Assembly: GCA_044892525.1 (NCBI GenBank)
Contig: CM097885.1
Span: forward strand, 72,602,001 to 72,666,000
Direction: 5' to 3'
Source of the DNA: Schmidtea polychroa
Lineage: Eukaryota
Length of the DNA stretch: 64,000 bases
Under the pieces are notes generated by a model that ran no database searches, was not told the origin of the DNA, and saw nothing but the letters and a program-made list of their open reading frames with translations. Shown in pieces: positions 48,902 to 61,800 of this stretch (its first letter is position 1; every line of letters begins with the position of its first letter). Position numbers and translations under genes: made by a program.

Positions 48902-51900
48902 ATGACGAATGTGGTAAAAACCGACGAATATAAAGAAAAATTTAGAGGCGAACCGTTCAACGGGAATGCGAACAAGTTGGCAACGTTCATAACAAATTTT
49001 GAAGTCTATATCGATGTGTGCGGATGGACAGCGGAAGCAATTAGTAAACGAATGCCTCTGTTTTTATGTGATAGCGCATTAGAAGTGTACTTAGAAGCTA
49101 AAGAAAGGAATACGAAGTTAGACAATTGGGAAAGCATCAAAACATTCTTGAGGAAAACTTTCGGAGCCAGCAAACCAATAAATCAAGCCCTAGGAGAATT
49201 AGCGAGTAGAAAACAAAGAGCAAATGAATCAATAACGTTATACGCAAGTGAATTGCGAAGATTGGCAAAGAAGGCCATGAACGGAAACTTGCCGGAGGAA
49301 AACTTAATTGGTTACTTCATAGAAGGACTGCGCCGGGAAGAGGTAAGGGCCTCGGTGGGATGTCAAATGTGTAAAACACTAGAAGAAGCCATAGATTGGG
49401 CCACAAGATGCGAACTACACCTCCCTGCACAAATGAATGTCATGCAAGAGGAGGGAAGAATCGCAACAGCAACGGTGAAAACGGAAAATGGAGATAACAA
49501 CAATCATGAACCCAAGATGAATCAGTTTATACCAGGAGCACATCAAATCTTCAAACCACCACAAGGACGAGCAAACGGGAATAACAGTGAACGCAACAAC
49601 TCGAACAATGGGAACAACTTTAATAATCGACGAAATATGAACGATAACAAACAATGCCGAACATGCGGTAAACCAGGACATTGGGATAGAGATTGTTACC
49701 GAAACGCAAATTGCAATAGGTGTGGACGACGAGGACACACGGAAAATATATGCCAATTGAGAGGATGTTTTAACTGCGGTCAACCAGGTCATATCTCAAG
49801 AGACTGTCGAGAAAGGAGCCAACAACAACGACCACCACAGCGAAATAATAACTATGCACCAAATCCGCAACGACAAAGTAATCCTAGTGAGGGAAAGCAA
49901 ATGAATGTGATGCAAGAAATTTCACAAATGAAGCAGATGATGCAACAAATGATGAGACCGAGACAAGAGCAAGTACCACAACAAACCCAGAATATACGCA
50001 TGATGAGGAGCACCGAGAATCTTAACAATTATGAAGTGCAACAACATGCACAAGAATGGCAAAGACTACAAGCTGAAGAAGAGAGGATAAAAAGAGAGCG
50101 AATTCAGCAGCGACAAGAACAACCATTACGAATAAATATGATGAGAATGGTAAGGGAGATAAAAGAGCAATATTGTTACAATTACGGTAAAAATCCAAGA
50201 GTTGTACCTATGAGCGAACCAGAGAAACCGAAAGAAACAATTACAGCAGCAAAAAAGGAAAATTCAGCAACACCGCTGAAAGGAAATCAGAGAATTCAGA
50301 AAATATTTTGGAAAAAGATAAAAGATAAAATCGAAAGAGAAAATGAGAAAACAAAAACAGAAGCAGAAGCAGAAAATAACGAAAATGAAAAACAGATTAA
50401 TCATCTAAATCATGATATGATACGAGAATTAGACTCAGAGGAGCTAACGATACTCGAGAACAAAAAGTTAAAGAAAGTACCAAGAATGAGAAATTTACGA
50501 ATTAATATGATGAGGACAACAAGGAAGGTGTTGTCAACAGATGACGAGGAGGATTATGTGAGTAGCCTTGGTGGAGAAATGTTACAGTTAAATGAAAATA
50601 TCGACCAACTAAGAGAAAAGATCGGAGCAGATGAGGATGAAAGTGAAAGCGACGTGACAAGCGAAAGCGAAGACGAGAATATCGAAATGAAATTGAGAAA
50701 AGAAAGAGAAGAAGCGATAAAACAAGTAAAGGAAATACTTCCAGTGGTGGTAAGAAACCAGGAATTCATTGACATCATACCATACAGACGCTTCATACAA
50801 AAGATAATGAAACTGGAAAGAAACGAAAAAGATTTAATACCAAGCGAGGAGAAAGCGATAATAAAGAAGTATATGGAAAAAATGAAACAAGCGGAGACAA
50901 CACGCTATGTAATAAAAATCGGAACGAGTAAAGGACTCGAGAGAATATGGATAAAAAATGCAGTTACAGACGATCTTTTCGATTGGATAAGAGAACATTT
51001 GGGCAGCTCGAGAAAGAAAGAATACCTGTATCAATATCAAGGAGAACAAATCAAACCAGACAGGCACCTAATAGATGCATTGATCTGGCCAGGAGAAACT
51101 CAAATATTGAAATTGCATAAAGAGAAGCAACCAGCAAATATTCACGAATGGGCTAAAGACGCCAAGGCCGAGTATGACTTTAACATCAAGCTGAAGCTGG
51201 AACAAATAAAACAATGCACCTTGCGACGAAATCTAGATAAATTAATCAAACAAATCCAAGAACAAGTTGAAGATAACTGGGATTTGCTCATAACAAGACG
51301 AACTGCAGACATGCATGAACTAATGAGCCGACTGCGAGATACAGAACTGCTCCGAATGAGTGATTGGAGAACCATAAATTTGATCCACAAATATGGAAGG
51401 TTGAAAGAAACGCAACCGCAGAAATTGGAAATAACCATATGGTTACCAAACGAGGAGAAACGACGAATAAAAATGAGTAACCAGAGTACGGTGGACGATT
51501 TAGTATCAAAGATAAACCGAGAGATAACGGAAAAAGTACGAAGCGAGAGCAGCGATGGTATGATAGATGACGTAGTCATGATGTACGATAAAATAATACT
51601 ACGGGCTGAAGACGATACCTCATTAAGCGAAATGGGAATGTGGGATAATCACCAAATCATTAGAATATTGCCCATGGACGAATTCCGAACAAGAGATGTA
51701 ACATACCAGAAAGAGATAAGAGACAGGATGAAAACGCTATACCAAAAATCAGTGGAGATAATTGAAATTCATCAACAATGGCTAAAGGAAAAAGAGCTTC
51801 AAGGAAAAATAAAGAAACTGAGTACCAGATCCTGCAGACGAACTCCCTGGGAAAGGATGTGGAATGCGGAAAACAAAGAATGGGAAATCAGGAAAGGGAT

Positions 51901-58865: not shown

Positions 58866-61800
58866 AATAATGAGCGAAGTAACCAATTACTTCAAGATTG
58901 CAAAATTAAGAACATCACCGTACCACCCACAAACAAATGGTATGACAGAAAGATTCAACGGAACCTTGATCCAGATGTTATCAAATTATGTCGATCGTCA
59001 TCAACGAGACTGGGATGAATATATAAAATTATGTCTAATGGCTTACAGAATGTCGATTCACGCGTCCACAAAGATGAGTCCGTTTAAGTTGATGTACGGC
59101 AGAGAATGCAATATGCCAATGGATCTAGAATATCAGCCACCAATATCACAGTATATGGAAATAGACGATTATGTGACCAAGTTCAAGGAAAGAATGCAGG
59201 AAATCTGGGAAACTGCAGGATTGAATATAAAATTTTATCAAGAAAGTTACAAAGAGTTACATGATAGAAAGAAAAACGTCAAACAGCATACGTTCCAAAC
59301 GGGCGATTGGGTGATGATCGAAACGCCAGAATTAATTCCAGGAACCACCAAAAAATTACAACGAAACGGTAAAGGTCCGTATGAGATTCTATTCATCGGA
59401 GAAACCAATGTGAGAGTACGACTGGTAAACAACCCCTTCACGAGGCCAATATATGTAAACGTGGCACGATGTAAGCCAATACCGAAAACAGCCACCAGCC
59501 AGCCGGAAGGGCGAACATTAACAACAAGATCACAAACGTATAGAATAAATATGTTACAGCAGATAAACGAACCAACAGGTAATCGATTGGGGTTACAACC
59601 ATCAGAAGCCGAGAAAATCATAAAGGAAGTGAAAGCTAAAATGCCCGGATGGGCAAAAGACAGATTAGATTTTGAGATATTGGGAGGTCTGCTAACAATG
59701 ATCGAAAATTATGCAAACCGAGAGAGAACACACCCATTACTCAGGGTAGTAAAAAGTCAATGGCCTATATTATTTACGATCACAGACCATTATGGAGATA
59801 CACCGCTGCACAAACTTTTAAAGGTCGGGAATAATGAACAAATACTGGAAACGATCGAAGCGTTTCGCGACTGTAACATTTCGACGGATCAAGAAAACAA
59901 CCAAGGTTACACTCCACTAATGATAGCAGCCAATCGGGATAAAGCTAAAGATATTATCATCGCATTACTTGAAACTGGGTCAAAGATAACCACACAAGAC
60001 CACAACCAGAAAAATGCACTACATCATGCAATCGAAGGGAAAAGTACGGAAGCCTTCATAATCTTAGTAGATCTATTATCATATGAGGATAATAGGGAGA
60101 TAGGAAACATGTATGACGGGCTATTAACTGCAATCAAAGAGAAATTAATAACAATTGCTGGATTACTAATTGCATGGAGGAACCCGATCAAAAACGATTA
60201 TATGGTAGATATAAACGAAACATTTACCAAAGGAGAAAACACCTTGATGAGAGAAGCGATGAGAGGACATCACCTATTCGAAATTCCAAATCAACTACTA
60301 CAACGTGGCATAAAGTTCTCAAATCACAAAGACGAACAACTAATCAGAAAACGAATTACCAACTTCGAAAAAGCTATATCTCAATTTACCGATAAAGTAC
60401 AAGTAAAATTTTGGGAAACCGTGAGTGTATTATATATGATGGAAACTATGAATAACATTCGAGAAACTTACCTAAGCATTATTCAAGTTCTAACGGCAGA
60501 GGAACGCATTAACAATTCGAACAAGAAAAAGATAAAAATCAAGAAAATAACAGCAAGGGAGGCTGAGAAACAAGTCAATCAAATAATAAGCGATATAGCA
60601 ACAACAAGTAAACCAAAGATAATAAACTCCGACCAAGAGATAGTAGTACGTAAGGCTAAAGAAGTATTCTTGGAAGAAATGCAAGATCTATCCGATGAAG
60701 CGATACTAGCAAAAATAACAAAAACAGTACTCACCTACGCAAGAGACCAGACCACAAATCTAGACATAGAAAAAATAAAAACATTTATACCACTAGCATT
60801 CACCTTACCAACAAAAGACTCAAGAACACCATTACAACAAGCCATTTTAGCAGCAAAAGAAAACAGAGCAATAACCATCATAAGAATCCTTAGAGACTTC
60901 GGAGAAGAATCTAATGCAAAAAATGAACAAGGAGAAACAGCAATGATGTATGCAGCCATAACAAATATACACCCGAAAACATTACATATACTACATCGAT
61001 CGGGATCAAGACTGGACGAAATATCAAACGAAGGAAATTCTACCATAGATTTGGCAACAATACAACCAAACTTGGAAATGATTAGATTCATTTGTAAAAA
61101 TGCTACAAGAACTGAGGTAGAAAATATCTGTAAAAACACGTCACAGTTCCAATGGAACACGATACGGATGAACTTAGAAGCCATGAAGTTATTGCTAACA
61201 TGGAAAATACCGCAAAGCAATAAATATGCAATAAATATAAATGAATTCTACGAAAACGGAGAAAATGCTATGGTTAAAAATACACTAACTAAAGGAGGAA
61301 CTCCGAAAATCATAATGATCGTATTGAACAGAGAAGACCTCAAATTCACGCAAAATCTAAACGAACAAAAGCGAATCGGAAAACATCGCCGTATACAATT
61401 GAGAGAACTGGTAAAAGAATGGAATAGAAAGAGACATGTAGCAACAGGCAGAAAAGAGTTTGAATTCGAAGCAAAATTAGCAAGAAATAGAGTGCTAACG
61501 GCATACCGCAGATTGTTGAATGATATAAATGTCGAGGACGACATTTTAAACGATAGCGGGGGAGATAAAGACGATAAAGACGACGATAATAATGAAAAAG
61601 GTCGAAACGGGAATAAAGAGAAAGAGAAATCAGAGGAGAATAATCAAGAAAATAACGACGCGAGTAGGAAAAAAGAGGAAAATAACCCGGGAAACCGAAT
61701 GAAGCAAGAAGAAAAGACGAAGAGTGGAAAACAGAGGGTATGCCTACTTTTTACCAACAAAGAAATGGAGACAAATATGATGATAATGATACTCGTATTA

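Follow-up and report, generated by a model that had tools for sequence, protein, structure and literature searches.

Candidate protease cleavage sites along the polyprotein of a Burro-like retroelement from Schmidtea polychroa

The Burro elements (Burro/GYPSM1), giant gypsy-like LTR retrotransposons of dugesiid planarians, are the closest described counterparts of a retroelement that we analyzed in Schmidtea polychroa (Eukaryota). The element lies on the + strand at about 48.6-62.8 kb of an AT-rich, repeat-rich stretch of 64,000 nucleotides (NCBI GenBank assembly GCA_044892525.1, contig CM097885.1, positions 72,602,001 to 72,666,000 of the forward strand). We call this whole stretch the window and number all positions within it. 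Eleven related pentapeptides are spread along the polyprotein of the element, and, taking the analysis as a whole, they are probably the sequences that the element's own dimeric aspartic protease recognizes.

In Burro, Gag contains two or three knuckles, ubiquitin/SUMO-like and BCL2-like motifs are present between gag and env, env lies in frame between gag and the protease, and a dUTPase-like part and ankyrins are found in a polyprotein of 4,873-5,140 amino acids, whose effect on the host is described as untested (PMC6431247). The same source reports a TRAF-related accessory open reading frame (ORF) upstream in Dugesia tigrina, and a figure legend mentions tandem repeats. The element in the window is similar: it has Retrotrans_gag, three CCHC knuckles and a mononegavirus-like env between gag and protease, then protease, reverse transcriptase (RT), ribonuclease H (RNase H), integrase and ankyrins, with RING and TRAF-like accessory ORFs nearby and an AT-rich host. 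The order of its Pfam matches is Retrotrans_gag, CCHC knuckles, Monjiviricetes-type fusion glycoprotein, aspartyl protease, RT, RNase H, integrase and ankyrin repeats. It has about 4,600 codons compared with the 4,873-5,140 amino acids of Burro, and the present copy is broken at four places. Unlike Burro, its polyprotein has no MATH/TRAF or BIR match, and a TRAF-like RING ORF is found downstream instead. By domain architecture alone, set beside the description of Burro, the element is Burro-like.

Foamy virus cleavage sites have the form V-N|x-V. They differ from other retroviral sites and resemble those of yeast retrotransposons, Ty1 and Ty3 peptides are cross-cleaved, and foamy Gag and Pol are each cut about once (PMC3185560); foamy polyproteins are scarcely processed, unlike the map predicted here. 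In Ty1, a copia element (MEROPS A11), the sites are VPTIN*NVHTS, IHLIA*AVKAV and TARAH*NVSTS, with mainly Val or Ile at P2 and P2' and hydrophilic residues at P3 and P3' (PMC6952103, including its Table 1). Ty3 Gag3-Pol3 (PDB 4ol8, 7q5b) is in the same superfamily as the present element and, unlike it, has neither env nor cargo domains. Errantiviruses with the same GAG-ENV-POL gene order, also Ty3/gypsy, occur in Nematoda, Bryozoa and Platyhelminthes; in the available part of PMC13524379, cleavage is mentioned only for env furin sites and the name Burro does not appear. Degenerate hydrophobicity patterns hamper the prediction of retrotransposon protease sites (10.1101/2024.04.02.587720), and the available parts of PMC7828637, PMC5371799 and PMC11410931 give no site sequences. 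No cleavage map for Burro was found in the literature searched; the original descriptions and the supplements, outside that literature, could hold one. The cleavage passage in the available part of PMC6431247 concerns ribozymes and DNA, and that part contains no such map. The principle of a retroelement protease that cuts Ile/Val-x|x-aliphatic is established, and the kind of signal is known. A processing map of this kind was not found in print, and one for a Burro-like element is a testable and useful prediction.

Eleven pentapeptides and their placement

The original prediction was that a recurrent R-[IV]-[NCH]-[MLA]-[ML] pattern marks domain boundaries as a protease cleavage code. All eleven of its pentapeptides are present at the coordinates listed here, and each is read in the main coding frame of the polyprotein piece that carries it. 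The pattern does recur, with five matches, and covers five of the eleven sites. The domain labels given to the sites are right except for RICKM, which aligns with the last strand of the protease fold (E about 1) and does not lie clearly after the protease. Ranks out of 4,812 are from a profile built only from relatives of the element, and ranks out of 1,334 from a profile of the element's own Pol-side sites (both described below).

49430..49444, +: QMNVM, candidate post-capsid site, moderate; rank 3 (tied) of 1,334 and 342 of 4,812
49898..49912, +: QMNVM, candidate post-knuckle site, moderate; same peptide as at 49430, flanks unrelated
49991..50005, +: NIRMM, candidate site, weak, Arg at P1; rank 70 of 4,812 and 6 of 1,334
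50129..50143, +: RINMM, candidate site, good; rank 13 of 4,812
50498..50512, +: RINMM, candidate site, good, peptide modelled in the protease cleft; rank 12 of 4,812
52049..52063, +: HIHAM, candidate site after an acidic tract, weak; rank 154 of 4,812 and 17 of 1,334
56053..56067, +: TIAVM, candidate protease N-terminal site, good; rank 9 of 4,812, with catalytic-Asp spacing
56425..56439, +: RICKM, candidate protease C-terminal site, weak, overlapping the last predicted strand; rank 142 of 4,812
58182..58199, +: RICLM(V), candidate RNase H/integrase site, position good, register uncertain; rank 465 of 4,812, or 8 one residue over
59542..59556, +: RINML, candidate integrase/ankyrin site, good; rank 3 of 4,812
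61735..61749, +: RVCLL, candidate site 14 codons 5' of a signal-like segment, moderate; rank 22 of 4,812

The five matches to the full pattern occur in 4,837 translated residues, where 0.07 are expected (0 of 3,000 shuffles, whole or local), and the five pieces of the polyprotein contain no other match. A core pattern, [IVM][NCH][MLAV][ML], gives nine matches against about 1.5 expected (0 of 3,000 shuffles), namely eight of the listed sites and EINVL at 52547. Both sets of figures overstate significance because the patterns were fitted after the fact. A loose pattern that spans all eleven sites finds eleven against about 1.3 expected, with no extra match in the five pieces. The sub-pattern RIN is scarcely enriched (4 vs 1.5-1.7; 195-289 of 3,000 shuffles), and in the three reverse frames the full pattern has a single match, in one frame. 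EINVL ranks 40 with the relatives' profile; it was dropped as a site by position only, as it lies inside a putative ubiquitin-like unit. RIATAT at 49457, nine codons after the first QMNVM, ranks 5 with the same profile, and KMNAI (56434), considered in place of RICKM, scores no better (rank 196 of 4,812).

The two QMNVM and the two RINMM are each encoded by DNA that is identical at 14 of 15 positions, with one synonymous base different, and the flanks within each pair share 12-17 of 45 bases. These unrelated flanks rule out local DNA duplication as the source of the repeated peptides, and the recurrence of the same peptides with synonymous differences in unrelated surroundings counts in favour of the protease reading.

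The motifs lie mostly outside recognizable domains. Eight of the nine core matches are outside domains, compared with 37% of residues (p 0.002) and with 44 of 100 generic [IVM]xx[ML] skeletons (p 0.008), where the limits of some domains were drawn by eye. The env ectodomain and the lumenal part at the C-terminus contain none of the eleven motifs, with topology judged from hydropathy, as expected for a cytosolic protease.

The most likely cut is at the third bond of each pentapeptide, as in R-I-N|M-M and T-I-A|V-M, and on this register the eleven sites share a simple composition. P2 is Ile in eight, Met in two and Val in one; P2' is always hydrophobic (nine Met, two Leu, no Val or Ile); P1 is polar or small; ten of eleven have Met, Val, Leu or Ala at P1'; and a hydrophilic residue is found at P3 in all eleven (Arg in six) and at P3' in nine. 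The S2 pocket would hold Ile or Val, with a small P1 (Asn, Cys, Ala or His), Met, Leu or Val at P1', Met or Leu at P2', and polar P3 and P3'. As in the Ty1 sites that have been described, Ile is found at P2, P1 is small (Asn, Ala, His), P2' is hydrophobic and P3 and P3' are polar, and the Ty1 P2-P1 pairs IN, IA and xH reappear here as RIN, TIA and HIH. Ty1 is from a different superfamily and has three sites, whereas here there are up to eleven, six of them with Arg at P3. Judged by their sequences, the motifs may work like Ty-type sites that lack the P1' feature specific to Ty1.

Relatives, junction geometry and a model of the protease

The distant relatives used for comparison came from RT and env searches and are at best 41-49% identical in RT or env; 25-27 of them were used, and those among the 27 without an anchor motif contributed no window of sequence. 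Many carry env before the protease in one frame, and in P0038, P0047 and P0054 (our handles for individual relatives) gag, env and pol are in a single frame. Unseeded expectation-maximization (EM) on 53 post-RNase H windows of generic gypsy elements recovered [VLI]-[ANETC]-[ADVT]-[ILFV], with a log-likelihood of 124 vs 76-86 for shuffled windows, and in Burro-like elements, those with env before the protease, it recovered [IV]-[AYS]-[MTA]-[LVI] (114 vs 77-82 shuffled).

A profile of the relatives' junctions was then seeded solely by Val or Ile at P2 and P2' and scored leaving one element out. None of 200 shuffles reached the score of the RNase H/integrase class (13 windows) or that of the protease N-terminal class (35 windows). 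The RT N-terminal class also gave 0 of 200 and was left out, as several of its picks sit in a strand of the preceding domain. Applied to the present element, this profile places five sites (RINML, TIAVM, both RINMM and RVCLL) within the top 22 of 4,812 positions, and the eleven sites score above the other 90 skeleton positions (p 0.002). Close single matches, picked by hand, include RICAL at the RNase H/integrase junction of P0055, the post-knuckle RVNFV in P0134 and RVSFM in P0121, RVQML ahead of the ankyrin module of P0052, and RINYM ahead of a protease-like domain in P0121. The computations show that the motifs exist, that they avoid folded and lumenal domains, and that they recur at two junction classes in distant relatives.

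Several relatives (P0034, P0043, P0052, P0055, P0121, P0122, P0123 and P0140) have two to five protease-like D[ST]G domains per polyprotein. Some of these domains follow integrase, and many are preceded by a junction-type motif, for example IGML three times in P0121.

The geometry of the protease fits a cut at its N-terminus. With a cut at TIA|VM, the mature protease would have its catalytic Asp at residue 26, and Asp25 of HIV-1 protease aligns with this Asp. Among all 35 leave-one-out picks in relatives, the most frequent spacing is 26, and 18 of 35 lie at 24-28, a range that among 26 possible positions corresponds to p 2e-5, uncorrected for relatedness.

The RNase H/integrase motif has a counterpart in Ty3. 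The Ty3 RT chain in 4ol8 ends ...SRAVY and the polyprotein continues TITPE, giving an x-V-Y|T-I boundary in the same linker as RICLM, after the AD..SR end of RNase H. This boundary has Val at P2 and Ile at P2', and it lies 3 residues past SR, whereas the present motif lies 12 residues past. We take the chain end to be a natural cut.

At the other end of the protease, RICK aligns with the last strand of the ASPRV1 protease (E about 1), so RICKM may be structural, a cut site, or both. Whole-protein alignment misplaced the C-terminal residues of the protease, and single-sequence AlphaFold was uninformative (predicted local distance difference test, pLDDT, 53 for the protease and 41.5 for the accessory region).

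Two protease copies were modelled with ESMFold2 together with a 32-residue peptide around the RINMM at 50498. The dimer with this peptide scored 0.85, vs 0.43 for the best of three controls; of microbial pairs, 51 of 78 solved and 2 of 108 mismatched ones pass the mark used for such scores, and of eukaryotic pairs 39 of 65 solved and 2 of 126 mismatched ones do. The modelled runs share at least 75% of their contacts, with a pLDDT of 55 for the partner. In the model, the two Asp373 and the two flaps are touched by peptide residues 12-22. Residues 376, 378, 401 and 403 form contacts with Ile15 in one subunit and with Met18 in the other. The cleft would thus be centred on Asn16|Met17, which is the N|M register predicted from Ty1. 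The model supports binding of RINMM in the protease cleft and stops short of demonstrating it.

Weighing the protease reading

Support differs among the sites. TIAVM, RICLM, RINML and both RINMM are likely cut by the element's protease; RVCLL and both QMNVM are somewhat more apt to be cut than to be left intact; for NIRMM, HIHAM and RICKM cutting is doubtful. The claim that the motifs are the element's own processing sites is well supported at the protease N-terminus, the RNase H/integrase and integrase/ankyrin junctions and both RINMM, and weak at those last three. What had been called a cleavage code fits the Ty1/Ty3-type rule, and is a narrow version of that published rule instead of a new one.

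An Arg/Met flavour is evident in the present element, and the comparison with relatives suggests lineage-specific tuning of the cleavage motif. The similarity of motifs at separate junctions is 4.24 within a relative vs 1.74 between relatives (p 40/2000; 35 picks from 20 elements, with 17 within-element pairs). A profile of the three Pol-side sites of the element itself ranks five of the six gag-side sites sixth or better among 1,334 positions (0-3 of 2,000 shuffles), and profiles from 12 relatives, applied to the same gag-side positions, are in no case significant (best 17/300). Sequencing runs of one organism indicate a many-copy family with many diverged copies. No indels are among the variants listed for 49330-52200, and among 40 of 715 variants listed, 24 are synonymous and one is within a motif, also synonymous (about 1.3 expected by length).

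Several results weigh against this reading. The gag-side result requires RINML in the training set: once the profile is trained on just TIAVM and RICLM, its top scores do not exceed those of shuffles (815 and 643 of 1,000), although RINMM is still first in its piece and RVCLL ranks 2 of 1,366 in its own. Two protein searches with longer and shorter forms of the gag-side piece found no relatives and no proteins of close family copies, which is weak evidence. In the relatives, pre-protease EM in generic gypsy elements gave no clear motif (123 vs 114-119 shuffled), and the integrase-end class (18/200; 11 windows, excluding five that overlap protease N-terminal windows), the post-knuckle class (44/200; 12 windows) and the capsid-end class (128/200; nine windows) are not above shuffles. 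With the relatives' profile, non-sites inside folded domains also rank high, and some proposed sites rank low: QMNVM 341 and 342, RICLM 465, HIHAM 154 and RICKM 142 of 4,812. The RT N-terminus has no good motif, and LTPMID there ranks 200. Unlike the described Ty1 sites, which have a hydrophilic P1 and P1', ten of the eleven have a hydrophobic P1', and P2' is Met or Leu and not Val. As to the model, the complex score is uncalibrated for peptides and one unrelated 32-mer reached 0.43; one peptide was modelled, and many protease-peptide complexes have been solved, so memory could contribute. Finally, when relatives were tested each with its own profile, that profile marked the pre-env region in one of nine. 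With the within-element similarity on one side and this result on the other, a motif specific to the element is weakly supported.

The alternative that survives best, which we nonetheless regard as unlikely, is that only ordinary junctions are cut (the protease N-terminus, RNase H/integrase, the integrase end and perhaps the capsid and nucleocapsid ends), while the motifs of the accessory region are vestigial, inefficient or look-alikes. Far fewer products would then be made, much as in foamy viruses, where Gag and Pol are cut about once each (PMC3185560). The significance of just two junction classes in the relatives is consistent with this, as are the failure of the own-profile test in eight of the nine relatives and the poor scores of NIRMM, HIHAM and RICKM. 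Against it, RINMM occurs twice with unrelated flanks and is one residue from RINML, it ranks 12-13 of 4,812 by a profile blind to the present element, and it is the part of the 32-mer that the model placed in the cleft.

It is still less probable that the motifs are not scissile at all and are instead beta-strand or docking elements, either the terminal strands of domains or strands of the SUMO/ubiquitin-binding type. A SUMO-binding motif has a hydrophobic core beside an acidic tract, and a core of this kind could engage the ubiquitin-like units of the element. The alignment of RICK with the last ASPRV1 strand, the core match EINVL inside a putative ubiquitin-like unit and the acidic tracts that adjoin HIHAM and the RINMM at 50498 all point this way. 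However, the motif is found where processing must occur, at the protease N-terminus with the right spacing and in the RNase H/integrase linker, and most copies have neighbours that are polar or basic rather than acidic. A cleavage site can also lie on a terminal strand, as in retroviral proteases.

Chance with post-hoc fitting in a Met-, Ile- and Arg-rich polyprotein, or recognition by host proteases, is very improbable: the full pattern covers five of eleven sites, the patterns were fitted to their matches and simple sub-patterns such as RIN are weakly enriched, but the locally shuffled controls, the relatives-only profile and the spacing test are independent of the original choice of sites, the reverse frames yield one match in all, and the motifs have neither dibasic (furin) nor Asp-P1 (caspase) character.

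The element, its surroundings and its predicted products

The polyprotein spans about 4,620 codons counted from the Met at 48908. Three frame changes and one in-frame stop divide it into five pieces in the present copy.

48908..62778, +: Burro-like polyprotein span in five pieces (stop to stop 48581-52927, 52843-55020, 55021-56493, 56454-58865 and 58663-62778)
49055..49336, +: Gag capsid core, Retrotrans_gag (PF03732, E 6.9e-10)
49652..49816, +: three CCHC zinc knuckles (PF00098, E 4.4e-12; three CX2CX4HX4C by direct reading)
51422..52564, +: two putative ubiquitin/SUMO-like stretches, about 51422-51688 and 52355-52564 (Atlas 0.84-0.86, mark 0.9)
53425..53592, +: putative BCL2-like segment with a GGW motif at its end (53563); GGW at the same place before env in four relatives
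53695..55605, +: signal-like segment and Monjiviricetes-type env with membrane anchor (PF24664, E 5.9e-42 and 8.2e-23; hydrophobic segment at 55438)
56062..56445, +: aspartic protease, unbroken, DTGA at 56137 (PF00077, E 1.4e-8; dimer pLDDT 91-92)
56766..58148, +: RT and RNase H (PF00078, PF17917, PF17919)
58227..59478, +: integrase with zinc-binding part, core and C-terminal part, and a frame change inside (PF17921, PF00665)
59659..61431, +: two ankyrin-repeat modules, about 59659-60306 and 60703-61431 (PF12796, E 5.4e-17)
61777..62637, +: signal-like segment (61777), presumed lumenal domain and C-terminal anchor (62581), from hydropathy; 0 of 11 motifs

The two ubiquitin/SUMO-like stretches have no Pfam match, phmmer between them finds only trace similarity, and BLAST of the gag-side piece against itself finds no internal repeat; a third putative stretch, at about 50903-51136, was judged by eye. 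DVTSES occurs twice (about 50640-50720 and 52020-52080), each time in an acidic tract 5' of a helical and ubiquitin-like stretch, and is followed by NIEMK, a misfit to the motif, after the first and by HIHAM after the second.

The BCL2-like segment also lacks a Pfam match. Its GGW, which we read as a BH2 box, is at the same pre-env place in P0123, P0125, P0127 and P0129. Over 53425-53760, the segment directly abuts the env signal-like segment, which, by analogy with tail-anchored BCL2 proteins, could anchor a BCL2-like protein after a signal-peptidase cut. A GRP(R/K/P)K motif, AT-hook-like in our judgement, lies before env at 53050-53064 and in five relatives (P0034, P0055, P0121, P0122 and P0127).

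Env is interrupted by a stop and contains none of the eleven motifs. The catalytic motif of the protease is intact, with DTGA at 56137 and IIGTD downstream. A putative dUTPase-like domain between protease and RT has no Pfam match, and a similar stretch in relatives was recognized by eye only. The ankyrin modules have BLAST matches to P0052 and P0109, and hydropathy places the signal-like segment and then the membrane anchor 3' of them.

Several ORFs flank the polyprotein on the + strand. Upstream are a small coiled-coil-like ORF without a Pfam match (44419-45180) and a small ORF with a C3HC4 RING at its end (46148-46645; PF13920, E 1e-8), followed by a tandem array of about five units of 73-74 nucleotides (47238-47607) ahead of gag. 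Downstream are a short coiled-coil-like ORF (62920-63306) and an ORF that runs off the window (63345-64000), with a RING finger (PF00097) and then TRAF-type zinc-finger-like repeats. Burro elements exceed 30 kb in total and have long LTRs; in the window no long direct repeat was found, and the element runs off it. Outside the element, a dispersed repeat family has four copies (148-234, 19726-19880, 25478-25630 and 29268-29405) near short ORFs at 19058 and 27526 that lack convincing Pfam matches, and 7669-7849 consists of 181 N.

In an unbroken copy, the polyprotein would be threaded through the endoplasmic reticulum membrane at the two signal-like segments, and cuts by host signal peptidase would set env and the C-terminal membrane protein free. 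On the cytosolic side, the protease could release capsid, nucleocapsid, several small coiled-coil pieces and the ubiquitin-like modules, and also itself, RT, integrase and a double-ankyrin protein of about 730 residues. By nucleotide distance, eleven cuts would give pieces of about 177, 156, 31, 46, 123, 517, 1,335, 124, 586, 453, 731 and 344 residues. At the env signal segment the 1,335-residue piece would undergo a further split, and in the 586-residue piece RT would stay joined to the putative dUTPase-like part, unless a site has been overlooked. The predicted total of about a dozen mature products is plausible and unproven, given three weak motifs and an RT N-terminus with no good one.

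Burro-type elements make giant single polyproteins that include apoptosis- and ubiquitin-related domains. A cleavage map tells which mature proteins exist and where each one starts, and is a prerequisite for studying any of them. Because a near-identical motif is repeated many times, the element is also a good natural substrate set for the specificity of gypsy proteases. We tentatively raise the further possibility, itself rather doubtful, that one narrow Arg/Met-biased signal, R-I-N/C|M/L-M/L, is reused about ten times as a general tag for cargo release. If so, a single membrane-threaded polyprotein of about 4,600 residues would yield, in addition to the Gag and Pol products, separate host-directed ubiquitin-like modules, a BCL2-like protein and a double-ankyrin protein, with the BCL2-like protein left membrane-anchored by the env signal segment. 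Each lineage would evolve its variant of the tag together with its protease, captured domains would be freed by gaining the tag, and host proteins that bear the motif could be targets.

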